Assembly: GCF_016903815.1 (NCBI RefSeq)
Contig: NZ_CP069973.1
Source: Escherichia coli
GTDB taxonomy: Bacteria; Pseudomonadota; Gammaproteobacteria; Enterobacterales; Enterobacteriaceae
Reading direction: 5' to 3' (one strand)
DNA length: 64,000 bases
In this document: positions 3,813-61,745 of the stretch, piece by piece
How the letters are laid out: each line of letters opens with the position of its first letter
Position numbering within the stretch: position 1 is the stretch's first letter
Translations under genes and position numbers: made by a program
Notes under the pieces: generated by a model
Databases searched by the model: none
The model's input: only the letters and a program-made list of their open reading frames with translations
Told to the model about the DNA's origin: nothing

Positions 3813-4232
3813 TCAAAGAAACCATTCCGGCTTAACACCAAATCGGGCTGAAAGTGCCTTAATGTGGGATATCGTCAGGGATCGTTGCCCAGACAAAATC
3901 TGACTGACCAGGGATTTAGAGCCGATTTCGTTCTTCAAATCCGCGTAGGTCAGATTATGTTGATCAATCAGCGTACGAAGTAACGCCACGCCAACCGGCA
4001 TTGCTGCAACGGCTTTGTCGAACTCGGCAAACTTTTCGTTGTTGTTTTCATATTCTGCAATGCGGCTCGCCAGAAAGTCGATAAGTGGATTGGTGTCATC
4101 TTCTTCAATCAAATATTCGACCAGTTCCAGTGCTTCACGATAATCATCTTCTGAGTCACTACCTCCCAGAAAGGGGACTGCATTGACCAGTTCTCTTGTT
4201 GCTTTAACAGCGCGTGCAGCATTAGCAGTCAT
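3813..4232 (-). CDS. HigA-like antitoxin, XRE-family HTH
   Basis: 139-aa ORF; C-terminal HTH (EIGSKSLVSQILSGQRSLTISHIKALSARFGV) resembling E. coli HigA; overlaps upstream toxin gene by 4 bp. Confidence 0.75.
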   Translation of the reverse strand: MTANAARAVKATRELVNAVPFLGGSDSEDDYREALELVEYLIEEDDTNPLIDFLASRIAEYENNNEKFAEFDKAVAAMPVGVALLRTLIDQHNLTYADLKNEIGSKSLVSQILSGQRSLTISHIKALSARFGVKPEWFL

Positions 4233-4540
4233 TCTTTGTTCTCTCTGTAGTAACGTGTCAGTTTGTCATACTCTGCGTGATTCGTTATGTGCTTCACAAA
4301 GAACCGCTTATTAACAAAGTTTATGTAGGCAATAACCCTAAGATTGTTCCCGCCGACATCCAGAACGTACCATTTGTTGCGATATCTAAAATTGTCGAGG
4401 TTGGGAAACGCCGTTCGCATTTCTTCTGGTGTAGAAAAATCCGTTTCCTTAATAACCCGATACAATGAGTATAGAGCCAGAGCGTCGTTAGGATATTTGC
4501 GCGCACACTCTTCAAATGGCGCTTTCGAAATGATGTGCAT
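4229..4540 (-). CDS. HigB-like toxin (RelE/ParE superfamily mRNA interferase)
   Basis: 103-aa ORF resembling E. coli HigB (MH.I...A..D...KYP...FP.LDNF.Y....YV..VGGN.LRV.A...F......I....H.EYD); toxin-first order typical of higBA; AAGGAAG RBS. Confidence 0.75.
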   Translation of the reverse strand: MHIISKAPFEECARKYPNDALALYSLYRVIKETDFSTPEEMRTAFPNLDNFRYRNKWYVLDVGGNNLRVIAYINFVNKRFFVKHITNHAEYDKLTRYYRENKE

Positions 4541-18594: not shown

Positions 18595-19023
18595 ATGGCA
18601 GTTTCAGCAAGAAATCAATTAACCGGAACAGTTAGCGCAGTAGCAATGGGCGCTGTGAATGATGAAGTAGAACTGACGCTGGCAGGTGGTGCAAAGCTGG
18701 TGGCAATTGTGACTCACAGCAGCCAGCAAGCGCTGGGTCTGGCGAAAGGGAAAGAAGCGATTGCCCTGATTAAAGCCCCGTGGGTAACGCTGGCAACGGA
18801 AGGCTGTGGACTGAAATTCTCTGCTCGCAACCAGTTTGCTGGCAGCGTGTCGACAATCACCGAAGGCGCAGTGAACGCCACTGTCCATATCAAAACGGAT
18901 GCGGGTTTTGAAATTGTGGCAGTGGTAACAAATGAAAGTCAGGATGAAATGAAACTCACCACTGGCTCGCGCGTTATTGCATTGATCAAAGCATCAGCCA
19001 TCCTGATTGCCACCAAAGCGTAA
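18595..19023 (+). CDS. Molbindin: tandem TOBE/Mop-domain molybdate-binding protein
   Basis: About 142 aa from MAVSARNQLTGTV; two repeated Mop-like halves (SARNQ..G.V..I..GAVNA.V); AAGGAGG RBS 5 nt upstream; 45 bp after fhlA stop. Confidence 0.7.
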   Translation: MAVSARNQLTGTVSAVAMGAVNDEVELTLAGGAKLVAIVTHSSQQALGLAKGKEAIALIKAPWVTLATEGCGLKFSARNQFAGSVSTITEGAVNATVHIKTDAGFEIVAVVTNESQDEMKLTTGSRVIALIKASAILIATKA

Positions 19024-24029: not shown

Positions 24030-24938
24030 ATGAAAACGGGATCTGAGTTTCATGTCGGTATCGTTGGCTTAGGGTCAATGGGAATGGGAGCAGCACTGTC
24101 ATGTGTCCGCGCAGGTCTTTCTACCTGGGGCGCAGACCTGAACAGCAATGCCTGCGCTACGTTGAAAGAGGCAGGTGCTTGCGGGGTTTCTGATAACGCC
24201 GCGACGTTTGCCGAAAAACTGGACGCTCTGCTGGTGCTGGTGGTCAATGCGGCCCAGGTTAAACAGGTGCTGTTTGGTGAAACAGGCGTTGCACAACATC
24301 TGAAACCCGGTACGGCAGTAATGGTTTCTTCCACTATCGCTAGTGCTGATGCGCAAGAAATTGCTACCGCTCTGGCTGGATTCGATCTGGAAATGCTGGA
24401 TGCGCCAGTTTCTGGTGGTGCAGTAAAAGCCGCTAACGGTGAAATGACTGTCATGGCCTCCGGTAGCAATATTGCCTTTGAACGACTGGCACCCGTGCTG
24501 GAAGCCGTTGCCGGAAAAGTTTATCGCATAGGTGCAGAACCGGGACTAGGTTCGACCGTAAAAATTATTCACCAGTTGTTAGCGGGCGTACATATTGCTG
24601 CCGGAGCCGAAGCGATGGCACTTGCAGCCCGTGCGGGGATCCCGCTGGATGTGATGTATGACGTCGTGACCAATGCCGCCGGAAATTCCTGGATGTTCGA
24701 AAACCGGATGCGTCATGTGGTGGATGGCGATTACACCCCGCATTCAGCCGTCGATATTTTTGTTAAGGATCTTGGTCTGGTTGCCGATACAGCCAAAGCC
24801 CTGCACTTCCCGCTGCCATTGGCCTCAACAGCATTGAATATGTTCACCAGCGCCAGTAACGCGGGTTACGGGAAAGAAGACGATAGCGCAGTTATCAAGA
24901 TTTTCTCTGGCATCACTCTACCGGGAGCGAAATCATGA
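24030..24938 (+). CDS. ygbJ: NAD-dependent L-threonate dehydrogenase (3-hydroxyisobutyrate dehydrogenase family)
   Basis: 302 aa; Rossmann GLGSMG motif. Confidence 0.85.
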   Translation: MKTGSEFHVGIVGLGSMGMGAALSCVRAGLSTWGADLNSNACATLKEAGACGVSDNAATFAEKLDALLVLVVNAAQVKQVLFGETGVAQHLKPGTAVMVSSTIASADAQEIATALAGFDLEMLDAPVSGGAVKAANGEMTVMASGSNIAFERLAPVLEAVAGKVYRIGAEPGLGSTVKIIHQLLAGVHIAAGAEAMALAARAGIPLDVMYDVVTNAAGNSWMFENRMRHVVDGDYTPHSAVDIFVKDLGLVADTAKALHFPLPLASTALNMFTSASNAGYGKEDDSAVIKIFSGITLPGAKS

Positions 24939-26197
24939 TCAAGATTGGCGTTATCGCCGATGATTTTACCGGCGCGACGGATATCGCCAGTTTTCTGGTG
25001 GAAAACGGTCTACCAACGGTACAAATTAACGGTGTTCCAACAGGTAAAATGCCGGAAGCAATCGACGCACTGGTGATCAGCCTGAAAACGCGTTCCTGTC
25101 CGGTTGTTGAAGCCACACAGCAATCGCTGGCGGCTCTGAGCTGGTTGCAACAGCAAGGTTGCAAACAGATCTATTTCAAATACTGCTCTACTTTCGACAG
25201 TACGGCGAAAGGTAATATCGGCCCGGTTACCGATGCATTAATGGATGCTCTCGACACGCCGTTTACGGTCTTCTCTCCGGCCCTGCCGGTCAACGGACGT
25301 ACGGTTTATCAGGGGTATTTGTTCGTAATGAATCAACTGCTGGCCGAATCTGGGATGCGCCATCACCCGGTAAATCCCATGACCGACAGCTATCTTCCCC
25401 GTCTGGTTGAAGCGCAATCCACAGGGCGCTGCGGCGTCGTTTCGGCACATGTTTTCGAACAAGGTGTGGATGCCGTTCGTCAAGAGCTGGCTCGCTTACA
25501 GCAAGAGGGCTACCGCTACGCGGTGCTTGATGCGCTGACCGAACACCATCTGGAAATTCAGGGAGAAGCCTTGCGCGATACCCCACTGGTAACGGGCGGT
25601 TCTGGTCTGGCGATTGGCCTTGCCCGGCAGTGGGCGCAAGAAAACGGTAACCAGGCTCGCAAAGCAGGGCATCCGCTCGCTGGGCGCGGCGTAGTGCTCT
25701 CCGGTTCATGCTCTCAAATGACCAACCGCCAGGTAGCACATTACCGTCAAATTGCACCAGCCCGTGAAGTTGATGTGGCACGCTGCCTCTCAATTGAAAC
25801 TCTGGCCGCTTATGCACACGAACTGGCAGAGTGGGTTCTGGGCCAGGAAAGTGTACTTGCTCCACTGGTTTTTGCCACCGCCAGCACTGACGCATTGGCA
25901 GCAATTCAACAGCAATACGGTGCACATAAAGCCAGTCAGGCAGTAGAAACACTGTTTTCTCAACTAGCAGCGCGGTTAGCAGCGGAAGGCGTGACACGCT
26001 TTATTGTCGCAGGCGGTGAGACCTCCGGCGTAGTCACACAGAGCCTGGGAATAAAAGGGTTTCATATTGGCCCAACCATTTCTCCCGGCGTGCCGTGGGT
26101 AAACGCACTGGATAAACCTGTCTCACTCGCCCTTAAATCTGGCAACTTCGGTGATGAAGCCTTTTTTTCACGAGCCCAAAGAGAGTTTTTATCATGA
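24935..26197 (+). CDS. ygbK: 3-oxo-tetronate kinase (four-carbon acid sugar kinase family)
   Basis: 420-aa ORF overlapping ygbJ stop (ATGA). Confidence 0.8.
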   Translation: MIKIGVIADDFTGATDIASFLVENGLPTVQINGVPTGKMPEAIDALVISLKTRSCPVVEATQQSLAALSWLQQQGCKQIYFKYCSTFDSTAKGNIGPVTDALMDALDTPFTVFSPALPVNGRTVYQGYLFVMNQLLAESGMRHHPVNPMTDSYLPRLVEAQSTGRCGVVSAHVFEQGVDAVRQELARLQQEGYRYAVLDALTEHHLEIQGEALRDTPLVTGGSGLAIGLARQWAQENGNQARKAGHPLAGRGVVLSGSCSQMTNRQVAHYRQIAPAREVDVARCLSIETLAAYAHELAEWVLGQESVLAPLVFATASTDALAAIQQQYGAHKASQAVETLFSQLAARLAAEGVTRFIVAGGETSGVVTQSLGIKGFHIGPTISPGVPWVNALDKPVSLALKSGNFGDEAFFSRAQREFLS

Positions 26198-29072: not shown

Positions 29073-29106
29073 TAAAAAGGTCCGATGGGCATCGGACCTT
29101 TTATTT
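29073..29106. terminator. Bidirectional rho-independent terminator between ygbN and decarboxylase operon
   Basis: AAAAA-ggtccgat-gggc-atcggacc-TTTTATTT; 8-bp GC-rich stem flanked by A and T runs. Confidence 0.7.
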
Positions 29107-29341
29107 AGCGCTTACCTTCCGCCAGCAGCGGCGGGATGCTCGGCACCATCGGCGCGTCATCAATATCTTTCTGTGTCATGCGGAACGCTTCGGGATAATG
29201 TTCGCGGCTGGTGCGGCGTAGCGGTTCGGTATCGCGCCAGGTATAGAGGCAATGCTGGCACTGGTAGACCGTCCAGACATCTTTTACCGGCGATTTCGCC
29301 ATCACTTCAATCTGTTCATCAGCACAACGTGGACAAATCAT
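29105..29341 (-). CDS. ecdD: Small subunit D of non-oxidative hydroxyarylic acid decarboxylase
   Basis: 78 aa with zinc-ribbon-like CPRC...CQHC; directly downstream of UbiD-like gene. Confidence 0.7.
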   Translation of the reverse strand: MICPRCADEQIEVMAKSPVKDVWTVYQCQHCLYTWRDTEPLRRTSREHYPEAFRMTQKDIDDAPMVPSIPPLLAEGKR

Positions 29342-29351
29342 CTTGTTCTCC

Positions 29352-30779
29352 TTATTTACGTGCGGCCAGCATAGCGGTCAGTTTTTCAGCCCAGGCTTTG
29401 GTTTCCGGTAAATCCACCACCGGCTGGCTGTAGTGACCACGGTTGTCCGGGGCGACAGGCGTGGTGGCGTCGATAATCAGCTTGTCGGTGATACCGGCCG
29501 GGCTTGAGCCGGGGTCGAGTTCCAGCACGGACATATTCGGCAACTGCACCAAATCCCCTGCCGGGTTCACTTTCGAAGAGAGCGCCCACATCACCTGCGG
29601 CAGGTTGAACGGATCAACGTCTTCATCGACCATAATCACCATCTTCACGTAGCCCAGACCGTGTGGCGTGGTCATCGCACGCAGGCCCACCGCGCGGGCA
29701 AAGCCACCGTAGCGTTTTTTGGTGGAGATAATCGCCAGCAGGCCGTGGGTGTACATGGCGTTCACCGCCTGCACTTCCGGGAACTCGGCTTTCAGTTGCT
29801 GATACAGCGGCACGCAGGTGGCTGGCCCCATCAGGTAGTCGATTTCTGTCCACGGCATGCCGAGGTACAGCGATTCGAAAATCGGCCTGGTGCGGTAAGA
29901 GACTTTATCGATACGCACCACGGTCATGTTACGCCCGCCGGAGTAGTGCCCGGTAAACTCACCGAACGGCCCTTCGATTTCGCGTTTACGACTTTCGATG
30001 ACCCCTTCGAGGATCACTTCTGAACCCCACGGCACATCAAAACCAGTCAGCGGGGCGGTGGCGATCGGGTACGGGCTTTCACGCAGCGCGCCTGCCATTT
30101 CGTACTCGGACTGATCATATTTCAGCGGCGTGGCCCCCATCAGCGTGATGATCGGATCGTTACCCAAGGTGATGGCAATCGGCAGATCTTCACCGCGTTC
30201 TTCCGCTTTATGCAGATGCAGGGCGATATCGTGCATCGGCACCGGTTGCAGGCCGAGCTTACGTTTGCCCTTCACTTCCATACGATAGATACCGACGTTC
30301 TGCTTGCCGAAGTTATCCGGGTCGAGCGGATCGCGGGAAACCACGCACGCTTTGTCGAGATAGAAACCGCCATCGCCATCGTTTAAACGAAACAGCGGCA
30401 GGATATCGAACAGGTTGATCTCGTCGCCATCGACGGTGTTCTGCGCCCAGGCTGGATTGGCGCGGCGCTCCGGGGCAATCGGGAAGTTATCCCAGCGGCG
30501 GATAAACTCATCAATCTGCTTTTTGACCGGGGTGTTTGGCGGCAGGCCGAGGGAAATCGCGTGGTTCTGCCAGGAACCGATGGTATTCATCGCCACACGG
30601 GCATCGGTAAAGCCGCGAATATTGTCAAACCACAGCGCGGGCGCGCCGTCGCCGATACGCCCGGTGGCGTTAGCTGCTGCTGCCAGATCCGGTTCCGCGT
30701 TCACCTCTTCGCTGATTTTCAGTAACTGTCCGTGGTCATCAAGCGCCTGTAAAAAGCTGCGTAAATCATCAAATGCCAT
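29352..30779 (-). CDS. ecdC: UbiD-family (prFMN-dependent) aromatic acid decarboxylase subunit C
   Basis: 475 aa; UbiD-family similarity throughout. Confidence 0.8.
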   Translation of the reverse strand: MAFDDLRSFLQALDDHGQLLKISEEVNAEPDLAAAANATGRIGDGAPALWFDNIRGFTDARVAMNTIGSWQNHAISLGLPPNTPVKKQIDEFIRRWDNFPIAPERRANPAWAQNTVDGDEINLFDILPLFRLNDGDGGFYLDKACVVSRDPLDPDNFGKQNVGIYRMEVKGKRKLGLQPVPMHDIALHLHKAEERGEDLPIAITLGNDPIITLMGATPLKYDQSEYEMAGALRESPYPIATAPLTGFDVPWGSEVILEGVIESRKREIEGPFGEFTGHYSGGRNMTVVRIDKVSYRTRPIFESLYLGMPWTEIDYLMGPATCVPLYQQLKAEFPEVQAVNAMYTHGLLAIISTKKRYGGFARAVGLRAMTTPHGLGYVKMVIMVDEDVDPFNLPQVMWALSSKVNPAGDLVQLPNMSVLELDPGSSPAGITDKLIIDATTPVAPDNRGHYSQPVVDLPETKAWAEKLTAMLAARK

Positions 30780-31372
30780 TATTCATTCTCCTGAGAAAAA
30801 TTCCGGACCTGCGGCAATCCTTGCCAGCGCCTGGCGTGGGGATGTTCGAGGCCAAATTGATCCAGCACGCGGGCTACCACGTGGTGGACAATGTCATCTA
30901 CCGTTTCGGGATGGTTATAAAAGGCAGGCATCGGCGGCACCATCGCCACGCCCATGCGTGAAAGTGCGAGCATATTTTCGAGATGGATGGTGCTAAGCGG
31001 CATTTCACGCGGCACCAGCACTAGTTTGCGGCCTTCTTTGAGCACGACGTCCGCCGCGCGCCCTACCAGGCCATCGGCGTAACCGACACGGATACCGGCG
31101 AGCGTTTTCATACTGCACGGAATAACGATCATGCCGTCGGTACGAAAGGAACCTGAGGAGATGGTCGCCGCCTGATCCGCCGGGTTATGACTGAAGTCTG
31201 CGAGGGCAGCAACATCGCGAGCGCTGTAAGGCGTTTCCAGTTCAATGGTGGTTTTCGCCCACTTCGACATCACCAGATGAGTCTCGACATTCGGCATCTC
31301 CCGCAGCGCTTGCAGTAATGCCACCCCAAGAGGCGCACCGGTAGCCCCTGTCATCCCGACGATCAGTCTCAT
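30779..31372 (-). CDS. ecdB: UbiX-like flavin prenyltransferase (decarboxylase subunit B)
   Basis: 197 aa; UbiX/Pad1 motifs (GMTGATGA, IVIPCSMKTLAG). Confidence 0.8.
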   Translation of the reverse strand: MRLIVGMTGATGAPLGVALLQALREMPNVETHLVMSKWAKTTIELETPYSARDVAALADFSHNPADQAATISSGSFRTDGMIVIPCSMKTLAGIRVGYADGLVGRAADVVLKEGRKLVLVPREMPLSTIHLENMLALSRMGVAMVPPMPAFYNHPETVDDIVHHVVARVLDQFGLEHPHARRWQGLPQVRNFSQENE

Positions 31373-31518
31373 TGTTTATTCTCTTAATTGTTCGTATACG
31401 AACGTTATTATTAAAATACGCCTCTGTTTTCATCGCGGCAAGCACTGAAAAGTAACAACATCTTCTTCGTCACTGAAAAACCGCTATGATAGCAGCAGAT
31501 AGTTTGCCCGGAGTTTAC

Positions 31519-31926
31519 ATGGCGTTACGAAATAAAGCGTTCCATCAGTTACGACAGCTTTTTCAGCAGCACACGGCTCGCTGGCAGCACGAGTTACCTG
31601 ACCTCACCAAACCACAGTACGCGGTGATGCGCGCCATTGCTGATAAGCCTGGTATCGAACAGGTGGCACTGATAGAAGCAGCAGTCAGCACCAAAGCAAC
31701 GCTGGCAGAAATGTTGGCAAGAATGGAAAATCGTGGCTTAGTCAGACGTGAACATGACGCCGCTGACAAGCGGCGTCGCTTTGTCTGGCTGACTGCCGAA
31801 GGAGAAAAGGTACTTGCTGCGGCGATCCCCATTGGTGACAGTGTGGATGAGGAATTTTTGGGGCGTTTGAGTGCAGAAGAGAAGGAGCTGTTTATGCAGT
31901 TGGTGCGCAAGATGATGAGCAAATAG
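31519..31926 (+). CDS. MarR-family transcriptional regulator, divergent from decarboxylase operon
   Basis: Winged-helix MarR signature; start placed at ATG 31519 with GGAG RBS (ORF track begins 31486). Confidence 0.75.
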   Translation: MALRNKAFHQLRQLFQQHTARWQHELPDLTKPQYAVMRAIADKPGIEQVALIEAAVSTKATLAEMLARMENRGLVRREHDAADKRRRFVWLTAEGEKVLAAAIPIGDSVDEEFLGRLSAEEKELFMQLVRKMMSK

Positions 31927-31989
31927 GATGCTGATTGCCGGGTAGGACGCTGACGAGTCTTATCCAGGCGACAAAACACACCGACTTCC

Positions 31990-32028
31990 CAAACAAAAGA
32001 AAAAGGCCAGCCTCGCTTGAGACTGGCC
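31990..32028 (-). terminator. rpoS rho-independent terminator
   Basis: ggccag...ctggcc stem followed on minus strand by TTTTTCTTTTGTTT. Confidence 0.6.
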
Positions 32029-32046
32029 TTTCTGACAGATGCTTAC

Positions 32047-33039
32047 TTACTCGCGGAACAGCGCTTCGATATTCAGCCCCTGCGTTTGCAGGATTTCGCG
32101 CAAACGGCGCAGGCCTTCAACCTGAATCTGGCGAACACGTTCACGGGTGAGGCCAATTTCACGACCTACATCTTCCAGTGTTGCCGCTTCGTACCCCAGC
32201 AAACCGAATCGACGTGCCAGTACTTCACGCTGTTTGGCGTTCAGCTCGAACAGCCATTTGACGATGCTCTGCTTCATATCGTCATCTTGCGTGGTATCTT
32301 CCGGACCGTTCTCTTTTTCATCGGCCAGGATGTCCAGCAACGCTTTTTCGGAATCACCACCCAGCGGGGTGTCTACCGAGGTAATGCGCTCGTTAAGACG
32401 AAGCATACGGCTGACGTCATCAACTGGCTTATCCAGTTGCTCTGCGATCTCTTCCGCACTTGGTTCGTGGTCCAGTTTATGGGACAACTCGCGTGCGGTT
32501 CGCAGGTAAACGTTCAGCTCCTTTACGATGTGAATCGGCAAACGAATAGTACGGGTTTGGTTCATAATCGCCCGTTCGATCGTCTGGCGAATCCACCAGG
32601 TTGCGTATGTTGAGAAGCGGAAACCACGTTCCGGGTCAAACTTCTCTACCGCGCGGATCAGCCCCAGGTTGCCCTCTTCGATCAGGTCCAGCAACGCCAG
32701 ACCACGATTGCCATAACGGCGGGCAATTTTTACCACCAGACGCAAGTTACTCTCGATCATCCGGCGGCGGGAGGCAACATCTCCACGCAGTGCGCGACGC
32801 GCAAAATAAACTTCTTCTTCGGCCGTTAACAGTGGTGAATAACCAATCTCACCAAGGTAAAGCTGAGTCGCGTCCAACACACGCTGTGTGGCTCCCTGCG
32901 ATAACAGTTCCTCTTCGGCCAAATCGTTATCACTGGGTTCCTCTTCTACTAAGGCCTTTTCGTCAAAAACCTCAACTCCGTTCTCATCAAATTCCGCATC
33001 TTCATTTAAATCATGAACTTTCAGCGTATTCTGACTCAT
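32047..33039 (-). CDS. rpoS: RNA polymerase sigma-S (sigma-38)
   Basis: 330 aa from [14 protein letters not shown]; sigma-70 family regions 2-4; full-length with no internal stop. Confidence 0.95.
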
Positions 33040-33101
33040 AAGGTGGCTCCTACCCGTGATCCCTTGACGGAACATTCAAGCAAAAGCCTGGTTCCGCCGA
33101 T

Positions 33102-34241
33102 TTATCGCTGCGGCAAATAACGCAGCGGGTTTACGGATTTCCCCTTGTAACGAATTTCAAAATGCAAGCGTGTTGAACTGGTTCCGGTGCTACCCATGGT
33201 TGCTATTTTTTGCCCCGCCTTCACTTCTTGTTGTTCCCGGACCAGCATTGTGTCGTTATGGGCGTAGGCACTCAGGTAATCATCATTATGTTTGATGATA
33301 ATCAGATTACCGTAGCCGCGCAGCGCGTTACCGGCATAAACAACGCGGCCATCTGCGGTCGCGATAATTGCCTGTCCTTTGCTGCCTGCGATATCAATCC
33401 CCTTGTTGCCCCCCTCAGAAGCGCCAAAGGTTTCGATCACTTTGCCCTCAGTCGGCCAGCGCCAGGTGGAGATAGGCGTACTGGTTGATGTACTGCTGAC
33501 AGTCGGCTCGGTTGTGCTTGCTGTTGGCACCGTTACAGGCGCTGTGACCGTGGTCGCAGTTGGCTTGTTGTTCGGCAACATTTTGTTAGCACTCTGTTCA
33601 CCCGAAGACTCAGAATACGTAATTGTCGGTTGCGACGCAACAGCAACGGTGGAATTTTGTGCAGGCTTGATCACAACTCCTTGCTCTGCTGCGTCGGCCT
33701 GGGTAATGGCATTTCCGCCAGTGATTGGCGTACCGGAAGCATTACCCACCTGCAAGGTCTGACCAACGTTCAGCGCGTATGGTGCCTGAATATTGTTGCG
33801 CTGAGCAAGGTCACGGAAATCGTTGCCAGTAATCCAGGCGATATAGAAAAGTGTGTCGCCTTTTTTCACGGTATAGGTACTGCCGCTATAACTGCCTTTC
33901 GGAATGTTCCCATACTGACGGTTATAGACGATGCGTCCGTTTTCCATCTGTACCGGCTGCTGAGCTACTGGCTGCACCGGCTGGATTTGCGGTTGTTGAG
34001 TGGCCTGAATTTGTGGCTGCTGTACCGGCTGAATTTGCGGTTGCTGAGCTGTAGACGTCGTTCCCATTTTCGGCGGCGGCGTAATCAACATACCAGAATT
34101 GGTATTTGCAGGCGCATTGCCATTAACGGAGCTGACCGGTGCCGGTGGATTTGAAGTGTCAGAACAGCCTGCCAGCCATAGCGAAACCAGTGACAAAGCC
34201 GCAATGCGGCGAACGGTGAATTTTGGGCTTCCCGCGCTCAT
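33102..34241 (-). CDS. nlpD: Murein hydrolase activator NlpD (LysM + M23 peptidase lipoprotein)
   Basis: 379 aa; lipobox LAGCS, Gln/Pro-rich repeats, LysM ([13 protein letters not shown]), C-terminal M23 domain. Confidence 0.9.
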
Positions 34242-34380
34242 TTATCCCCCAGGAAAAATTGGTTAATAACCAGTGACATAATTACCGTGCAAGGCACCAT
34301 ACTGAACACTGGAAAAGATGTTCACGATACGCTGACCTGCGGCAAAATAACCAGGAAAAATCCAGGTATTTCCTCACGTT

Positions 34381-35742
<1,362 letters not shown>

Positions 35743-43187: not shown

Positions 43188-43765
43188 CGGTTTATCCCCG
43201 CTGACGCGGGGAACACGTCAATAGGCGGCGTCCCGTAGCCGTCCCCTTCGGTTTATCCCCGCTGGCGCGGGGAACACGTTGAGGTCGATAAGTACGAACG
43301 GTTTCCCTGCGGTTTATCCCCGCTGGCGCGGGGAACACGATCGCCTGCTCCAGCGTCACTCCCTGCCCCTCGATTTATCCCCGCTGGCGCGGGGAACACT
43401 TCTGATACGTACTGAGGCCGGTTGTGATACGCGATTTATCCCCGCTGGCGCGGGGAACACTAACCCCCAATGAAGTTAATAAAGTCTATGGCCGATTTAT
43501 CCCCGCTGGCGCGGGGAACACATGAGATTAAAATACTCAGTACTCTTACTCGCCGATTTATCCCCGCTGGCGCGGGGAACACCAGCGTGGCGCGATAAAG
43601 CAATGTGTCTGGCTCGATTTATCCCCGCTGGCGCGGGGAACACCAGAGGCAACCGACGCGGATTCAGTAGGAAAGCGATTTATCCCCGCTGGCGCGGGGA
43701 ACACCGATAGACACTTTGCGGTCATTGTCTATTCGGCGATTTATCCCCGCTGGCGCGGGGAACAC
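43188..43765 (-). CRISPR. Type I-E CRISPR array: 10 repeats of 29 bp, 9 spacers of 32 bp
   Basis: Repeats start at 43188, 43249, 43310, 43371, 43432, 43493, 43554, 43615, 43676, 43737 (61-bp period); plus-strand consensus CGGTTTATCCCCGCTGGCGCGGGGAACAC; repeat 1 is degenerate (GCTGACGCG); repeats 4-10 carry CGATTT variant. Confidence 0.97.
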
Positions 43766-43861: not shown

Positions 43862-45071
<1,210 letters not shown>

Positions 45072-45075
<4 letters not shown>

Positions 45076-45722
45076 GCCTCTGCTCCGGGTTTGATCAGCA
45101 TCAGACCACAGCCGAACGCGCGGCTTTTGCCATACCCCTGGCTCAGACGTTGCAGAAATAACCCAGGATCGGTGACCGTAAGCATCCCCGTATAATCCAC
45201 GCTACTGAACTGGATCAGTTGCCGGGAGTTTTCCCGCCGCAGTTGCTGTTGTCGGTAGGCATCGACCGAGGTATCCAGTAGTGTAAAACCGCTTCTTTCC
45301 CCCTGCGCTGCCAGCCAGTCCAGCGCCGCCTGTTGTTGATGCAACCAGACATCACTTCCTTCCACCTGCCCCCTCACCTGCCGTTTCGCCTCCATCAGCA
45401 AGTCGTGGCGTTTGCCCGCTTTACAAATTGTTGGATTCGCCCGCAGGTTGAAACAAAGGGATTGTCCGGTACGCAACTCTGGCGCAAATGGTCGGCATTC
45501 GATGGTGAAAATATCACTTTCCGCCGGGCGTTCCTGCGACAGGACAAAAAAGCGAAACGCCCCCTGGAGTTCTTCCCGACGATAAAGAAATTGCCTTTCT
45601 TTGCCGCCAGGAAAAAGATCCCACAGCCACTGATGCATTACATATTCACCGCGACCCACCAAATGCAGCAACTGCGCAGGCAAAAGCTGGCCGGTATGTA
45701 AGGTTATTCTTGAGAGGTACAT
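45072..45722 (-). CDS. cas6e: Cas6e (CasE) pre-crRNA endoribonuclease
   Basis: About 216 aa from MYLSRITL; ORF-track N-terminal extension overlaps cas5e and is rejected. Confidence 0.85.
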
Positions 45723-46450
45723 GGTTCCTCCTTGCTGAGCCACGGCCCCTGATTGATGGTGCGTTCCCCAAACAGCCACTGCTGACGATTTAAAGGAACA
45801 TCCCGGCGACGTAATATTTTGCTCGCGACCAGGCCGTCGTGTTCCCCTTCCCACCAGCATTCATCCTGAAGTTTCGGGAGTGAGACTTTCAGTTCGCGGA
45901 AACTATCCTGATACTGTTGGTATGCGTTACGTAAGACATCAGACGCGTTGCCTTCGAGCAGTAACGGCGCAAGTGGTAACGCCAGCGGATGACTTTTTCG
46001 CCCCAGATAAAGCGGAAAAACCGGATGACGTAAACCGTCCTGCAACTGTTCAAGCCTGTAAGACGCATCGGGGGTTGTTGCCACCGCCACCATCCACCAG
46101 GCATCGGTGTAGTAGTCGCGCCGGGAGATAATCGCGCTCAGAAGATCAGGGGCGCTCAACTCTTCGCGACGGCTGAAATAACGCGCTTTACGCACCTCTT
46201 TTGGCATCTGGACCGTGTGATAATCCCGTGCCCAGCGCGGGTTACGGCTGGCGCAAACCACCAGTGAATAGTGGCGGTTAAACGCGTTTAATCGTTCGGT
46301 ATCATCACGCCGAATCCCTACCCCGGCAGCCAGCAGCCCCAGCAATGCTGAGCGCGAAGGCAGTTCATGGGTATGACGCACTTCGCCGGGGGCATCGACG
46401 CCCCAGGATGCCATTGGCCCATGAAGCTGAAAAATCAAATATTGGCTCAT
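45704..46450 (-). CDS. cas5: Cas5e (CasD) Cascade subunit
   Basis: 248 aa; MSQYLIFQLHGPMASWG matches Cas5e N-terminal motif; GGGGCGG RBS. Confidence 0.85.
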   Translation of the reverse strand: MSQYLIFQLHGPMASWGVDAPGEVRHTHELPSRSALLGLLAAGVGIRRDDTERLNAFNRHYSLVVCASRNPRWARDYHTVQMPKEVRKARYFSRREELSAPDLLSAIISRRDYYTDAWWMVAVATTPDASYRLEQLQDGLRHPVFPLYLGRKSHPLALPLAPLLLEGNASDVLRNAYQQYQDSFRELKVSLPKLQDECWWEGEHDGLVASKILRRRDVPLNRQQWLFGERTINQGPWLSKEEPCTSQE

Positions 46451-46460
46451 TAGCCGCCCC

Positions 46461-47516
46461 TTACGCGCAGATAAAGTCCAGCACGTCCTTCATGCTTCCC
46501 TGTTTGTTCATCACGTCAAAGCTTACGCATTCGGTCTTCTGTTCATAGACCGTATTCATATTTTCGCGAAGCGTTGTAATACGCTGCACCGCCACATCTA
46601 ACTGCCGGGTGCCATTAATGGGTTCATAGAAAGCCGCCGCCAGAGAGCGTGGTTGTTCAGTGCCTTTTTCTGCCAGCGCCCAGGAGGCGTAGGCACGGCT
46701 GGCAAAGCTGTTCTGTTTGCCGGTTGGGGAGACTTTAAGTGCGGCTTCCGTAAAGGCGCGCAAGGTCTGATTAGCTAACGCTTCGTCACCGCCGAGGTTT
46801 TCGACCAGCAGATCTTTATCGATGCAGATATAGGTGTAGAACAGCGCAGAACCGAATCCGGTTTCACCAAGATGCCCGGCACCGGCATCTTCAGAAGCCT
46901 GGCGCAAATCATCAACGGCGGTGAAAAAATCATCTTCGACAATCGTTTCACTGACACCAAATGCATGCGCGACCTGGCAGGCGGCTTCAACATTAAATTC
47001 GGGTTTATTCGCCAGCATACGACCAAACATAGCGATATCTACCGCCATGCGATCTTTACGTAACAAAGCGAGATCTTCCTCTTTTGGCGCGCGCTTTTCT
47101 TCGGCCAGTTGATGGGCCAGCGCTTTTACGGCGTCAAATTCTGCCGGGCTGATATGGACTAGCTGTTCAGTTTCGGCGTTAGTGAGCGGATCTTTTGGTT
47201 TTTTGTCGTTTTTAGCTTTCCCAAGATAATCCGCAATTTTTGCCGCCCATTCGATGGCTTTTTTCTCTTCGATGCCTTTCTCAATCAGGATAGTTGCCGC
47301 CTCACGCGCAATACGCCCACTGCGAATACCAATATGGCCCGCCAGTGCCTGTTCAAAAAGTGCAGAAGTGCGCCACGCACGTTTCAGACTTTGTGAGGAA
47401 ACGCGCAGACGCGTTGCTCCACCCAGTACCACAGTTTTTGGCGCACCGGTGTCATCACGGTTAAGGTTGGCAGCAGGGTAAGCGGTTAACAAATGAAGCT
47501 GAATAAATGTCGTCAT
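46461..47516 (-). CDS. cas7: Cas7e (CasC) Cascade backbone subunit
   Basis: 351 aa; N-terminal IQLHLLTAYPAANLNRDD resembles K-12 CasC. Confidence 0.85.
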   Translation of the reverse strand: MTTFIQLHLLTAYPAANLNRDDTGAPKTVVLGGATRLRVSSQSLKRAWRTSALFEQALAGHIGIRSGRIAREAATILIEKGIEEKKAIEWAAKIADYLGKAKNDKKPKDPLTNAETEQLVHISPAEFDAVKALAHQLAEEKRAPKEEDLALLRKDRMAVDIAMFGRMLANKPEFNVEAACQVAHAFGVSETIVEDDFFTAVDDLRQASEDAGAGHLGETGFGSALFYTYICIDKDLLVENLGGDEALANQTLRAFTEAALKVSPTGKQNSFASRAYASWALAEKGTEQPRSLAAAFYEPINGTRQLDVAVQRITTLRENMNTVYEQKTECVSFDVMNKQGSMKDVLDFICA

Positions 47517-47530
47517 GAGATAGTCCTTTA

Positions 47531-48067
47531 TTAATTTTGTTCGTTATCGGCGTCGCCAGCCTGGTAATATTCCAGCGCCCAGCGGATACGGATAAATTCT
47601 GTTGGCCGCTGCTGGCGGCGGTGATGATTGAGCAGGTCGTCGCTCTCCTGGCACCAGCGGAAAATATCTTCTGCCAAAGAGATAAGATTGACGGAACCAT
47701 TTAATAATTTGACCGCGCGACGTAACTGACGCAGTAAATCATCAGGCGTTTTTACTGCCGACAGGCGAGTAAAACGCCCCTCCGACATTACCGCCGCCAG
47801 CTGCGCGGCAAAAGGCTGCCGTTCATCAATAGCTTTAACATTGGCGCTAACTGCGGCGACCAGCGCCAGTGCGGTAAAACGCCACTCTTGTGCTTCAATT
47901 TTCCACAAAGTGTGGGTCTGCATCAGCAGAGAACGAAACCCTTCTGACAGACAAACATCATTAACCGTTGTGCTACGCCGCAGACTGGCACGATTGCCGC
48001 GTTTTTCCTGCAACTCTTCGTGCCATTTACGCAGCGTGGCTTTGTGCTCCTCTTTTACAATACTCAT
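47531..48067 (-). CDS. cse2: Cse2 (CasB) Cascade small subunit
   Basis: 178-aa basic alpha-helical ORF between cse1 and cas7. Confidence 0.8.
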   Translation of the reverse strand: MSIVKEEHKATLRKWHEELQEKRGNRASLRRSTTVNDVCLSEGFRSLLMQTHTLWKIEAQEWRFTALALVAAVSANVKAIDERQPFAAQLAAVMSEGRFTRLSAVKTPDDLLRQLRRAVKLLNGSVNLISLAEDIFRWCQESDDLLNHHRRQQRPTEFIRIRWALEYYQAGDADNEQN

Positions 48068-49626
48068 TCAGCAGCCTCCTGCTTTTTCTCCCTGGCGGCT
48101 TTAGCATTTTGCTTCTCCGCCGATGTTGTAAAATATTTCTTGCGCGCGGTCATGACGCGTTTCAAATCAACGGGCTCATATGGATTGGTGAAGACACGCT
48201 CGTCAAAATCCTGACGCGCGAATAACCAAATTTCCTTTTGCCATTTGCTGAGTAATTCATCCGCATCCTGACCTTCTTCAATGTGGCGCACTAACCTCAG
48301 GAAGCGATGCTGAGTTTTGTTCCAGAAGTCGATATCCACAAAACTGAAATCACCCCGTGCACCTTTTGGATCGGAGAACCACGCTTCTTTCAATGCACTC
48401 CGTAACAGACTCAGAATCCGTGAAGCCGTTTGCGCAGCCAGCCGCAGCTTCGGTATCTGGCCTTCTTTTTTATCGAGCAGCAGCGGAAAATGGTGTTCGT
48501 ACCAACAGCGCGCTTTCATGTTGTCAAAATCATAACCAAATCCCCACAGGCCCACTTTTGCCTGCTTGAGACTGCTGGCATTAAAGAGTTTCACCACCAG
48601 CGCGGGAAGTTCCGTATTGTTTTCTGATTTACCCGTTTCGATAAGGCCTAACCAGTCGCGCCAGATTAAACCGCCTGGTTGTGGTTTGACCGAGTAAAAC
48701 TCGCCGCCCTCTTTAAGGGGTACACGGTAAGGCGTTAAGGGATGCTGCCACATGGCATAATTCGCGCCGTAATTTTTGGTCGTCATCAGGCTCAGGAGCG
48801 CGTCGTTCTGCTCGCCGCAAATATCGCAGTTGCCGACTGTCGTGGTATTAAAATCAATACGAATACGCCGCGGCATTCCCCAGTACGCCTGGAGTTTATT
48901 AACCTGATCATCGGTTACCACCGCACCGGCCAGTTCGCTGGTACGCGTCGGGCCAAGCCAGGGGAAAACCAGATCGTCAAATTTTTTGGGTAGCGGTAAG
49001 TCGGCTTCGTCCTGCGGCATCACATTGAGCCACAGTTTGCGCCACAAGGGCGTTTGTTGATTGCCCTGATATTCCTGTAATTCAATCAGAGTGGTCATCG
49101 GCCCACCGCCGCGTAAACCGGTGCGGTAGCCTTTACCACCTGACGGCGCATTTAACTGTAGGGAGAACAGAGCTAACGCAGAACAATGTGGGCACAGGTA
49201 TTCCGTTACACCACGCTTGATAAAGTGGTCTTTATTAAACTTCGTTGTTTGAGCGCCGGGAATCTCAGGCAGTAGCGAAGCGACCTGAACTTTATCTCCT
49301 GTGAGCGCCTCGAAATCCTGCATAAATGAAGGGGAATCTGGCCCAAACTGGAAAGCGTGTTCTAAGGACAGCAATGCTTCCCGTAGCTTTTCAGATTCCA
49401 GTCCGTCTTCCCAGATATCATCCCAACGACGATGATCTTTTGGCGCAAAGCTGGTTTGTAGTAGCCCCAGCAAAAACTGCCATGCCGCTCCCTGGAGATC
49501 TGCCCGTGGCGCAGCAATATCGACAACATTTTCATCCGCCAGATCGACAGGCGCCAGTTTGCCTGTCGTTCCGTCTTTATAACGAACGGGCAACCACGGG
49601 GTTGTCAGAAGTGAAAACGAGTTCAT
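48064..49626 (-). CDS. cse1: Cse1 (CasA) Cascade large subunit
   Basis: About 520 aa from MNSFSLLTTPWLPV; start chosen 6 nt after GAGG (ORF track begins 49695). Confidence 0.8.
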   Translation of the reverse strand: MNSFSLLTTPWLPVRYKDGTTGKLAPVDLADENVVDIAAPRADLQGAAWQFLLGLLQTSFAPKDHRRWDDIWEDGLESEKLREALLSLEHAFQFGPDSPSFMQDFEALTGDKVQVASLLPEIPGAQTTKFNKDHFIKRGVTEYLCPHCSALALFSLQLNAPSGGKGYRTGLRGGGPMTTLIELQEYQGNQQTPLWRKLWLNVMPQDEADLPLPKKFDDLVFPWLGPTRTSELAGAVVTDDQVNKLQAYWGMPRRIRIDFNTTTVGNCDICGEQNDALLSLMTTKNYGANYAMWQHPLTPYRVPLKEGGEFYSVKPQPGGLIWRDWLGLIETGKSENNTELPALVVKLFNASSLKQAKVGLWGFGYDFDNMKARCWYEHHFPLLLDKKEGQIPKLRLAAQTASRILSLLRSALKEAWFSDPKGARGDFSFVDIDFWNKTQHRFLRLVRHIEEGQDADELLSKWQKEIWLFARQDFDERVFTNPYEPVDLKRVMTARKKYFTTSAEKQNAKAAREKKQEAAE

Positions 49627-49723
49627 ACGCATCCTCTCGTAAAAAAGACCATCCCAGGTCGGTTGTCCATCATTCCATCCTTTTCGGTGTATCAACTATT
49701 CAGAGAGCCCTGTCGCAGGCATC

Positions 49724-52423
49724 TCAACCAACCTTGCCAGTCAATCCTTCCATAGCCGAATACCCGCAACTTTCGTCATCGGTAACTAAAATCACGTTTG
49801 CCATCTCCGGATCTTTCCGCTGTTCAATGCACCACTGCCTGAACGCTTCCCCTTCCAGTAAAGAAAACTCATCCCGATGTTTTTTCCACCAGCTTCGACG
49901 CACTCTGACAACGCTCATTTCCCATGCGTGAGCACCGTTGGCATAAGGCTTCACCACACTGGCAATACAGGTAGCCAGCCACAGGGAAACAGACTCCTCC
50001 GCCAGACGTGTCGACAGCTTTTCCGGAAGGTAATCGTTGATATTGGCGGCATAGCCAGGCCTGAAGTTCAGCACAAACTTTTTAGCCATTGCGCGATCGC
50101 AGTAATATTTGCCCACTTGCTCCTGCTCGCTGCGGGCAAATCCTTCCGGCATTACCACGTCCTCACCGTAGACTGATTCAATAAGAAGGCGGGCTGCGTG
50201 TGGCATTTGAATAGCGCCTTGCTCACGCAGTACACGCTGCGTCAGCCAGATTCGTCCATGATCGGGATAGACATATGCACTGTTACGCATGGCACTGCCG
50301 AACCATTCGTCACCTGGAGCGTCGTCCCAGACGGGGGCCAGAATCAGCAATTCAGGAGGGGAACGCTCGTCTTTTCCGTCACGCTTTAACTGACCATTAA
50401 TATCGCGGATATGCCGCTGTAATCGCCCCGCTCGCTGGATCAGCAAATCAACAGGGGCCAGGTCGGAAATCATTTCGTCCATATCGCAATCAACGCTCGA
50501 CTCTAAGACCTGAGTACAAATGAGGACTTTTCCGGCACGCTGTGAGCTATCTTCTTTACCGAAGCGTGCCAGCGTTTCCGTTTCAATTCGCTGGCGATCG
50601 CTAAAAGCAAAGCGGCTATGAAACAGAGAAAGGCTGGAAGCAGGAATGACGCCGCGGGCAAGCAACTGACGATAAACCTTAATAGCGTCATCGACAGAAT
50701 TCCGGATCCAGGCGATGCATTTCCCCTGACTTACTGCCGATTCGATACGCGCAATACATTCTTGTTCGCTATGAAGCCAACCCACGCTCACGCTACGCTC
50801 AACGTCTTTGCGCGTCGCTACCCGGTGTGAATGCACATCGGATTTCGTAACGTGCGTCAGCCAGGGGTAATCATCCTTTTCCAGGAACGGAGCTTCTTGC
50901 TGGCCCTCTGTACCACGCGCAAAGGCAGCAACGAGTTTGTCGCACTGCTGTTGAGATAACGTGGCAGAAAGCAAAATGACGCTGTTTCCGCCACGCGCCT
51001 GCCGCTCGATCAGCCCTTCAAGAATGCATGACATGTAAGCGTCACAGGCATGGATCTCATCAGCCAGCAGGATTTTGTTACTCAGTCCCAGAAGCCGCAG
51101 ATTATTATGTTTGAACGGCATCACAGCCATCATCGCCTGATCCAGCGTGCCGACGCCAATTTCAGCCAGTAGCGCCTTCTTGTTACTGTCGGCAAACCAG
51201 GCCGCACATCCCTGACTGAACGTTTGTTCATCCGGTTCTTCTGACCCGACTAAATCACCGGACCAGAGTGATTCATTAAAGCGGTCCATTAATGTTCGGG
51301 CACTGTGTGCCAGCACCAGGCTGGGGCGGGACTCTGGCGAATAGAAAGCAAGCCAGGTTTTGACCAGTCGATCGTACATGGCATTGGCCGTTGCCATTGT
51401 TGGCAGGCCAAAAAACAAACCCTGCGCTTTACCCGCAGCCATCAACCTGTGCGCCAGGATAAGCGCCGCTTCCGTTTTACCTGCGCCAGTCACATCTTCC
51501 AGAATAAATAACTGTGGCCCTGGCTGGCTGATATCCAGATCCAGCACCTTTTGCTGTAACGGTGTCGGATTCTCAATAAAAGGAAACAGCGTATTAATTC
51601 CGGTGAAAGGCGCGACTTTTGCTTTTAGAGGAAAGACGGTTAAGGCGTTTTGAGCCTGAACTAAAGTTTTCTGCCAGTAACCTTTAATATCCATTGGGTG
51701 TGCGACGCGTGGAAAAAATCGCGTTGACGAACCCGTCCAGTCTGCGAGCACGACGGTTGCAGAGATATACCAGGAAAGGTGTTTTATAAGTTCAATGCCC
51801 TCATCATCATCCCAGAATGCGGGGATCTCTATGAGCGGAAACAGTGGTTTGATTTCAAGAAGAAAATCTCGCGCGGCAGCTTTGTCTTCAGGCAGAAAAT
51901 TATCCAGTTCATCAATACGGTCAGGCGGGCGACCATGATGCCCGGTAGTTATGGGCATCCACATCTCCATCACCCGTTTAAGTTTGCGCGGAGAGAGTGA
52001 AGATGAAGGAAGCAATTCTTCGTATTCACTTAAATAATGATGCCACAGCCAGTAGCCCAGCGTTGAATGAGAGATCTTTTCGTAATTCTTTCTTGCGCCT
52101 TCCGGAACCTTGAGTTGTGGGTGCAGGTAAAGTTGCTGAAAAGAGCGGGCAAATTTTCCAGTATCGTGCCAGCACAATAGCCAGGCGAAAAATTGTGCTG
52201 CCTGCTCCGTATCAGCGAAACCTAGTTGACGAAAATAGTCAGTCAGCCCGAAGCAATTGCTTTTAACCATTAAATAGCCCATCGCGGCTACATCCAGCGA
52301 ATGCCAGCAAAGAAGGTGATAGTCGTCGCCCCCGTCTTTCTCGCCGCGTCGGGTTTTTCCCCAGAAATCAAAAAAAGTCACAATATTTTTATCCTTCAGT
52401 AAACTTAAAGGATATTTACGCAT
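49724..52423 (-). CDS. cas3: Cas3 HD nuclease / SF2 helicase
   Basis: 899 aa; N-terminal HD domain, Walker A (DVTGAGKTEAA), DEAH-like box (LADEIHACD). Confidence 0.9.
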   Translation of the reverse strand: MRKYPLSLLKDKNIVTFFDFWGKTRRGEKDGGDDYHLLCWHSLDVAAMGYLMVKSNCFGLTDYFRQLGFADTEQAAQFFAWLLCWHDTGKFARSFQQLYLHPQLKVPEGARKNYEKISHSTLGYWLWHHYLSEYEELLPSSSLSPRKLKRVMEMWMPITTGHHGRPPDRIDELDNFLPEDKAAARDFLLEIKPLFPLIEIPAFWDDDEGIELIKHLSWYISATVVLADWTGSSTRFFPRVAHPMDIKGYWQKTLVQAQNALTVFPLKAKVAPFTGINTLFPFIENPTPLQQKVLDLDISQPGPQLFILEDVTGAGKTEAALILAHRLMAAGKAQGLFFGLPTMATANAMYDRLVKTWLAFYSPESRPSLVLAHSARTLMDRFNESLWSGDLVGSEEPDEQTFSQGCAAWFADSNKKALLAEIGVGTLDQAMMAVMPFKHNNLRLLGLSNKILLADEIHACDAYMSCILEGLIERQARGGNSVILLSATLSQQQCDKLVAAFARGTEGQQEAPFLEKDDYPWLTHVTKSDVHSHRVATRKDVERSVSVGWLHSEQECIARIESAVSQGKCIAWIRNSVDDAIKVYRQLLARGVIPASSLSLFHSRFAFSDRQRIETETLARFGKEDSSQRAGKVLICTQVLESSVDCDMDEMISDLAPVDLLIQRAGRLQRHIRDINGQLKRDGKDERSPPELLILAPVWDDAPGDEWFGSAMRNSAYVYPDHGRIWLTQRVLREQGAIQMPHAARLLIESVYGEDVVMPEGFARSEQEQVGKYYCDRAMAKKFVLNFRPGYAANINDYLPEKLSTRLAEESVSLWLATCIASVVKPYANGAHAWEMSVVRVRRSWWKKHRDEFSLLEGEAFRQWCIEQRKDPEMANVILVTDDESCGYSAMEGLTGKVG

Positions 52424-52617: not shown

Positions 52618-52770
52618 CTACTTCTTCGATTCGTAAGCGAGAACTGCCTTAAACTCCATACCACGTTCTCTGATACTCAACTCACACAACGAGTCGCCTA
52701 CCATCAGCGTGAATCCCAGTACTGTACAACACAGTACGATGATTGCCACAAGGGCATATTTTGTCAGCAT
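52618..52770 (-). CDS. Hok/Gef-family type I toxin (small membrane peptide)
   Basis: Hand-translated 50-aa [53 protein letters not shown]; GGGAGG RBS; Hok signature (TM helix, LCE, AYES); below ORF-track length cutoff. Confidence 0.75.
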
Positions 52771-52985
52771 GTCTTGCCTCCCTGCAAAGAAGAGACTAAC
52801 ATTCGAATTGCTTAGGTTCGAACGCTGGCCTCAGGTTGATAGAAATATCGCCTGGGGCTTTTGTCCATCTGGAACCTCGCGAATGCTTAACGCCAGACAG
52901 CCTCAAGCACCCAACGCCATTCTATACCTGATAATTCTTCCAGCGGCGTTCACGTTTAAAATCAGGAATGCTGCTCGCAAAATAA

Positions 52986-60361: not shown

Positions 60362-60883
60362 ATGAAACATTCATTTGAAGTAAAACTTGCCGCTGTAAAT
60401 CATTACCTGGCTGGTCATGCAGGCATCATTTCTACGGCAAAACTCTTTCAACTTTCTCACACCAGCCTCTCACACTGGATTAATCTTTTTCTTCTTCACG
60501 GTCCTCGGGCACTGGATTGCAGACACAAGCGTAGCTATTCTCCTGAAGATAAACTTTGCGTGGTTCTTTATGCTCTCGGGCATTCTGAGTCTCTACCCCG
60601 GGTAGCTGCCCGGTTTAACATTCCCAGCCACAACACGGTTAAAAACTGGATAAAAGGCTACCGCAAATCTGGTAATGAGGCCTTTATCAGGCGCAGGAAG
60701 GAGAAAAGCATGACCCGTTCTGATGATACCCATGAAAACGAGGCAAACATGACGCCGGAAGAGATGAAGAATGAGCTACGTTATCTTCGCGCAGAAAATG
60801 CATATCTGAAAGCCATGCAGGAGCATCTCCTGGAAAAAAAGCGCCAGGAGCTGGAGAAAAAACGAAAGTCATCCGGAGCCTGA
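60362..60883 (+). CDS. insJ: IS150 OrfA (InsJ-like) HTH protein
   Basis: 173 aa from MKHSFEVKLAAVNHY; C-terminal leucine-zipper region; ends just after slippery site. Confidence 0.85.
   Translation: MKHSFEVKLAAVNHYLAGHAGIISTAKLFQLSHTSLSHWINLFLLHGPRALDCRHKRSYSPEDKLCVVLYALGHSESLPRVAARFNIPSHNTVKNWIKGYRKSGNEAFIRRRKEKSMTRSDDTHENEANMTPEEMKNELRYLRAENAYLKAMQEHLLEKKRQELEKKRKSSGA
60835..60841 (+). other. Programmed -1 ribosomal frameshift heptamer A-AAA-AAG linking orfA to orfB
   Basis: A AAA AAG in orfA frame at 60835..60841; orfB frame open from here to 61710. Confidence 0.7.
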
Positions 60884-60987
60884 GGTGCGGACACTGCCAG
60901 TCTGACCTGTTAAAGGCTGCAGGGCTGGCCAGAAGCACGCTGTACTACCAGCTGTCACTGCAGAAGGCTAAGGACAAGTATGCTGAT

Positions 60988-61745
<758 letters not shown>

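Follow-up and report, generated by a model that had tools for sequence, protein, structure and literature searches.

The rpoS gene and its product

The window, that is, the whole stretch of 64,000 nucleotides analysed here, carries rpoS on its minus strand, and the order and orientation of surE, pcm, nlpD and rpoS are the same as in K-12. Over its full length, with neither gaps nor mismatches, the window is identical to positions 3123464-3187463 of E. coli strain 7/2 (NZ_CP023820.1; human faeces, Sweden), and several other strains match it exactly over at least the central 24 kb. The coding sequences of the nlpD-rpoS operon are located as follows:

33102..34241, minus strand: nlpD, upstream gene of the operon, 379 aa, protein identical to that of K-12
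32047..33039, minus strand: rpoS coding sequence, 330 codons plus TAA, Glu33 allele, protein WP_000081550.1

The rpoS coordinates take in the stop codon (32047-32049). The reverse complement of 32047..33039 translates from MSQNTLKV to NIEALFRE, followed by the stop, with no internal stop codons, and the list of ORFs contains the same 330-codon frame on the minus strand. With three stops among 64 codons, the chance of a frame of this length remaining open is (61/64)^330, approximately 1e-7. Reading the same coordinates on the plus strand was rejected, given the many stops encountered, the gene lying on the minus strand. An ORF of 342 aa beginning at the in-frame ATG at 33075, which is also present in K-12, was likewise discarded: the start was assigned to 33039 and not to 33075 because a Shine-Dalgarno sequence (AGGAG) precedes the former and none precedes the latter.

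The product was recognized by the NCBIfam RpoS equivalog model NF004207 (604.6 bits, cut-off 394) and by TIGR02394 (480.7 bits, cut-off 378.7), while the other sigma factor models compared with it, those of RpoD and RpoH among them, all scored below their own cut-offs. Pfam placed Sigma70_r1_2 at residues 56-88, r2 at 94-163, r3 at 174-248 and r4 at 262-315 of the 330-aa protein. It therefore has the architecture of RpoS, with regions 1.2, 2, 3 and 4 and without the long region 1.1 and non-conserved insert of RpoD. Many complete E. coli genomes have an rpoS that is 100% identical to the 993-nt gene, and PGAP labels it rpoS, WP_000081550.1. In the public protein collection, at least 1000 contigs carry the exact protein, and no other RpoS sequence is as common in E. 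coli. In 5400 of 5426 complete genomes, rpoS is unbroken over at least 80% of its length, by a coarse count that is blind to point nonsense and frameshift mutations; an intact gene is what one would expect.

The sequence-only reading had described the 330-codon frame as uninterrupted, with no amber codon or frameshift, and had proposed a codon-by-codon alignment to a reference RpoS. This description was borne out when the gene was aligned with rpoS of MG1655 (NC_000913.3; b2741, NP_417221.1). There were nine nucleotide differences and no indels, and 984 of 993 nucleotides and 329 of 330 residues were identical. Eight of the changes are synonymous (codons 88, 90, 119, 154, 183, 188, 191, and 273). 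The only substitution is at codon 33, which is GAG (Glu) in the window and CAG (Gln) in K-12, that is, Q33E. It must be noted that the same reading had named a change at a known essential residue as the finding that would count against it; none was seen in the alignment, residue 33 being non-essential and both Ile128 and Lys173 being present. We take Lys173 to be the residue that contacts the −13 C and is recognized by RssB.

Apart from Gln33, encoded by a K-12-specific CAG, and the eight synonymous sites, MG1655 rpoS shares with the gene in the window its length of 330 codons, its place after nlpD, its terminator, its ribosome-binding site and its leader elements. In natural isolates other than K-12, the usual codon 33 is GAG (PMC2700278, PMC3074542), and every VTEC strain tested had it (PMC2700278). 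The Glu33 protein of natural isolates, WP_000081550.1, shows no difference from that of the window. Moreover, the latter is exactly the protein obtained when K-12 rpoS was engineered to carry Q33E, in which HPII catalase activity, glycogen, and survival of peroxide and cold were retained (PMC5405132). Among E. coli RpoS chains of known structure, 6kj6_F has a single difference from the window protein, at residue 33 (Gln), whereas 5ipl_F (sigma-S, PDB 5IPL) has Glu33 like the window and matches it over residues 3-328, its two differences being at residues 2 and 329, near its ends.

At the nucleotide level, strain ECOR50 has the same eight synonymous changes with respect to K-12: C264T, T270C, T357G, T462C, T549C, G564A, T573C, and G819A (PMC3074542, Table 1). 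ECOR50 and the window also fall into the same large (4.2-kb) class of rpoS-region PCR products (PMC3074542). C97G, the change responsible for Q33E, is present in the window and is not listed for ECOR50 in that table, which is either a real difference or an omission from the table.

Leader, regulatory elements and terminator

The leader of rpoS lies within the coding sequence of nlpD. The elements recognized in it and at the 3' end of the gene were the following:

33040..33606, minus strand: rpoS 5' leader, inside the nlpD coding sequence, four substitutions and no indels with respect to K-12
33206..33235, minus strand: putative A-rich Hfq motifs, (AAN)4 AACAACAAGAAG at 33224-33235 and A6 at 33206-33211, both as in K-12
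33133..33157, minus strand: cis antisense element of the leader (approximately −94 to −118), identical to K-12
33047..33051, minus strand: AGGAG, the Shine-Dalgarno sequence for the ATG at 33039 (8-12 nt upstream), same in K-12
32000..32033, minus strand: rpoS intrinsic terminator, 15-pair stem plus T run (terminator scan), 3' of the stop codon

The 1400 nt upstream of the rpoS ATG differ from K-12 by 11 substitutions and no gaps. As the NlpD protein is identical to that of K-12, all 10 nucleotide differences in nlpD are synonymous. The four leader substitutions, at 33201 (−162), 33222 (−183), 33333 (−294) and 33528 (−489), are third-position changes of this kind. From −490 to −700, a stretch that includes the promoter region, the sequence is identical to K-12; we take transcription from the main rpoS promoter to start approximately 567 nt upstream of the ATG. 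A sigma-70 promoter scan of 31300-34500 revealed no consensus-like site, which says nothing about the rpoS promoter, as this is known to be non-consensus. The Rfam scan of the whole window gave no RNA family at or near rpoS, its only match being sok, 20 kb away, and the tRNA scan of the window found none.

In the rpoS leader, the antisense element occludes the ribosome-binding site until the sRNAs DsrA, RprA, and ArcZ open it, and two Hfq sites, A6 and (AAN)4, are both located upstream of −115 (PMC3783183). By our own reading of the leader, the strings AACAACAAGAAG and AAAAAA would correspond to these Hfq sites. Both motifs are unchanged in the window, the substitution at −183 being placed 2 nt 3' of (AAN)4 and that at −162 being 5 nt 3' of A6.

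Secondary structures were predicted with ViennaRNA for the K-12 and window alleles. In a construct of 220+30 nt, the antisense element pairs with −18 to +5 in both. When the full leader was folded, only −18 to −13 paired with the antisense element, and the pairing of the ribosome-binding region was again the same in the two alleles. In a construct of 330+30 nt, which is an arbitrary truncation, the MFE structures of the alleles were very different; this difference was treated as instability of the MFE on an arbitrary fragment and not as evidence. Altogether, the antisense element and the Hfq sites match those of K-12 and pairing with the ribosome-binding site is predicted; activation by sRNAs would be expected.

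The variable block downstream of rpoS and the rest of the window

Identity to K-12 ends 46 nt past the rpoS stop codon, just beyond the terminator. There, 2,895 bp stand in place of 8 bp (GTGCACAG) of the 93-bp spacer that separates ygbN and rpoS in K-12, and as a result the distance between the two genes is 2,980 bp in the strain of the window. Its features are:

29106..32000: strain-variable block of 2,895 bp between ygbN and rpoS
29105-29341, minus strand: decarboxylase subunit D, kpdD (PGAP annotation)
29352-30779, minus strand: decarboxylase subunit C, kpdC (PGAP annotation)
30779-31372, minus strand: decarboxylase subunit B, kpdB (PGAP annotation)
31486-31926, plus strand: MarR-family ("slyA-like") regulator (Pfam MarR), convergent with rpoS

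According to the annotation of the identical record, the products of the B, C, and D genes are subunits of a non-oxidative hydroxyarylic acid decarboxylase. Pfam recognized UbiD and Flavoprotein among the products of the block, in addition to MarR. The terminators of ygbN and of rpoS are both retained and flank the block, and at its borders neither a target-site duplication nor mobile-element ends were seen. The neighborhood of rpoS had been called strain-variable from the letters alone, and this description proved correct: of 5426 complete E. coli genomes, 2380 contain the block at a coverage of at least 80%, while the rest match its short flanks only.

This variation is already catalogued, the arrangement being pattern IV of the mutS-rpoS interval. 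The pattern, of the EPEC E2348/69 type, has the same order of ygbN (o454), kpdD, kpdC, kpdB, the slyA-like gene and rpoS (Ewers et al., 2014, PMC4209514). Primers F5 and R2 of that work anneal in silico at 28714 and 33260, respectively, and would yield an amplicon of 4,547 bp, compared with the 4,546 bp reported (PMC4209514). The c3292, yclC, and ygbK primers of PMC4209514 also match the window, and the slyA primer does so with one mismatch. The F5/R4 product is the only difference from pattern IV, with 734 bp in silico here and 716 bp in PMC4209514.

The interval from the stop codon of the MarR-type regulator gene to the terminator of rpoS contains an imperfect palindrome, GCCGGGTAGGACGCTGACGAGTCTTATCCAGGC, at 31937-31969, whose appearance is, we presume, that of a REP element. 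In the terminator scan, nothing resembling a terminator was seen for the MarR-type gene ahead of the hairpin of rpoS.

Several other traits of the window were recorded. A second strain-variable spot is found on the other side of mutS, between fhlA and ygbA, where an ORF with a TOBE domain (18595-19023, plus strand) corresponds to the molybdenum-pterin-binding gene "c3292" of CFT073; with the published fhlA-mutS primers, the product is 1,674 bp here, as in CFT073, and 1,208 bp in K-12. The otnK/ygbK gene (24935-26197, plus strand) encodes 420 aa here and 388 aa in K-12 MG1655, which lacks one nucleotide at the position of 26083, with a shift of frame near the C-terminus of ygbK. The truncated form thus appears to belong to the K-12 reference and not to the strain of the window. 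Between ascB and hycI, the annotation of the identical record places two minus-strand genes, one for a HigB-family toxin (4229-4540) and one for an antitoxin-like helix-turn-helix protein (3813-4232). A CRISPR array lies beside iap, together with a complete type I-E cas operon on the minus strand (43191-43765 and 43862-52423) comprising cas2, cas1, cas6e, cas5e, cas7e, casB, casA, and cas3. A coding sequence of the Hok/Gef family (52618-52770, minus strand) adjoins the Rfam match to the sok antitoxin (52755-52912; 111.7 bits, gathering score 59). This match is on the hok strand and overlaps the 5' end of hok, whereas the antisense RNA is expected on the opposite strand; the Rfam sok model may cover the leader of the hok mRNA. 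Finally, an IS1397 transposase of the IS3 family, with a programmed frameshift, was located between ygcP and ygcQ (60362-61710, plus strand).

Presumed RpoS proficiency of the strain

The gene is intact, its protein is identical to a tested functional allele and its cis elements are conserved. On this basis we consider it very probable that the locus is a functional wild-type E. coli rpoS, carrying the Glu33 allele, within the pcm-nlpD-rpoS operon and with the pattern IV block and then ygbN-ygbI downstream, and nothing found in the sequence of the window speaks against it. Its product, sigma-S, is the group-2 factor of the sigma-70 family by which RNA polymerase is brought to the promoters of stationary phase and of the general stress response. 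The self-inhibitory antisense element, the ribosome-binding site and the putative Hfq sites are all preserved in the leader, and a terminator of its own follows the gene. By analogy with the K-12 Q33E protein, which is identical and was active in PMC5405132, sigma-S would be expected to be active in vivo in terms of katE/HPII catalase, glycogen, and stress survival.

The strain had also been called presumably RpoS-proficient, a statement that held up in view of the functional Q33E protein (PMC5405132) and of the intact leader elements, Shine-Dalgarno sequence, promoter-proximal DNA and terminator; proficiency is supported to the extent that sequence allows. We infer from this that the strain makes normal amounts of active sigma-S. 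However, an intact gene must be understood as a capacity and not as a level, because ECOR strains with the identical RpoS protein range from very low to the highest levels measured, with several-fold differences (PMC3074542). The word "presumably" is the right strength for the claim, since the regulators of the level (RssB, ppGpp/SpoT, Hfq, and the sRNAs) are encoded outside the window. More broadly, the level and activity of RpoS are also set by trans factors from outside it, namely RssB, ClpXP, Hfq, DsrA/RprA/ArcZ, ppGpp, Crl, and the Ira anti-adaptors, and the phenotype hangs on culture history too. It must also be considered that an assembly is a consensus, in which subpopulations of rpoS mutants can stay hidden. 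In collection strains, the share of rpoS-defective ones is 20-30% (PMC3074542).

Two kinds of departure from a fully functional locus were weighed. An open frame may encode an inactive protein if a critical residue is replaced, and there is a precedent for it: the single missense change I128N abolishes the activities of RpoS without truncating it, Ile128 being critical and involved in core binding (PMC5405132). In the window, both Ile128 and Lys173 are in place, the only change in the alignment is Q33E, which has been tested and found functional, and the protein is the most frequent RpoS of the species. The alignment with MG1655 already refutes such a defect, to which we assign a practically negligible probability. 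The other departure is that the ORF is intact and the strain is nevertheless attenuated for RpoS, either through the substitutions in the leader or through trans loci such as rssB, spoT, hfq, and the sRNAs. The case for it comes from the closeness of the substitutions at −183 and −162 to the (AAN)4 and A6 motifs (2 and 5 nt, respectively) and from ECOR50, which has the same synonymous haplotype and carries a T13N change in spoT, associated with low ppGpp. Nonetheless, RpoS is detectable in ECOR50, at 14.5 units (PMC3074542), which by our own estimate is roughly the level of MG1655. In addition, no change from K-12 is seen in the Hfq motifs, the antisense element, the promoter region or the Shine-Dalgarno sequence, the leader substitutions are without exception third-position synonymous changes in nlpD, and two of the three constructs give both alleles the same predicted pairing at the ribosome-binding region. 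The 24-kb stretch containing these substitutions is 100% identical across many independent complete genomes, which fits neutral lineage markers. For these reasons attenuation is regarded as unlikely.

A more specific effect of the neighboring sequences was given an even lower probability. The substitutions at 33222 and 33201 could shift Hfq- and sRNA-dependent translation and lead to another set point of RpoS, or antisense transcripts from the MarR-type gene could read through into the 3' end of rpoS; we consider either of them very improbable. A functional wild-type rpoS is therefore the reading that we retain, and both the gene and its neighborhood are already known and ordinary. This is a useful negative result, in the sense that there is no rpoS lesion to weigh when the genome is interpreted, and it raises no new question. 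The result for rpoS serves as a descriptor of the strain, indicating that it is genetically equipped for the general stress response, whose scope includes acid, oxidative, starvation, and osmotic tolerance as well as the regulation of biofilms, and the mutS-rpoS interval, of the pattern IV type, provides a typing marker that is already known.
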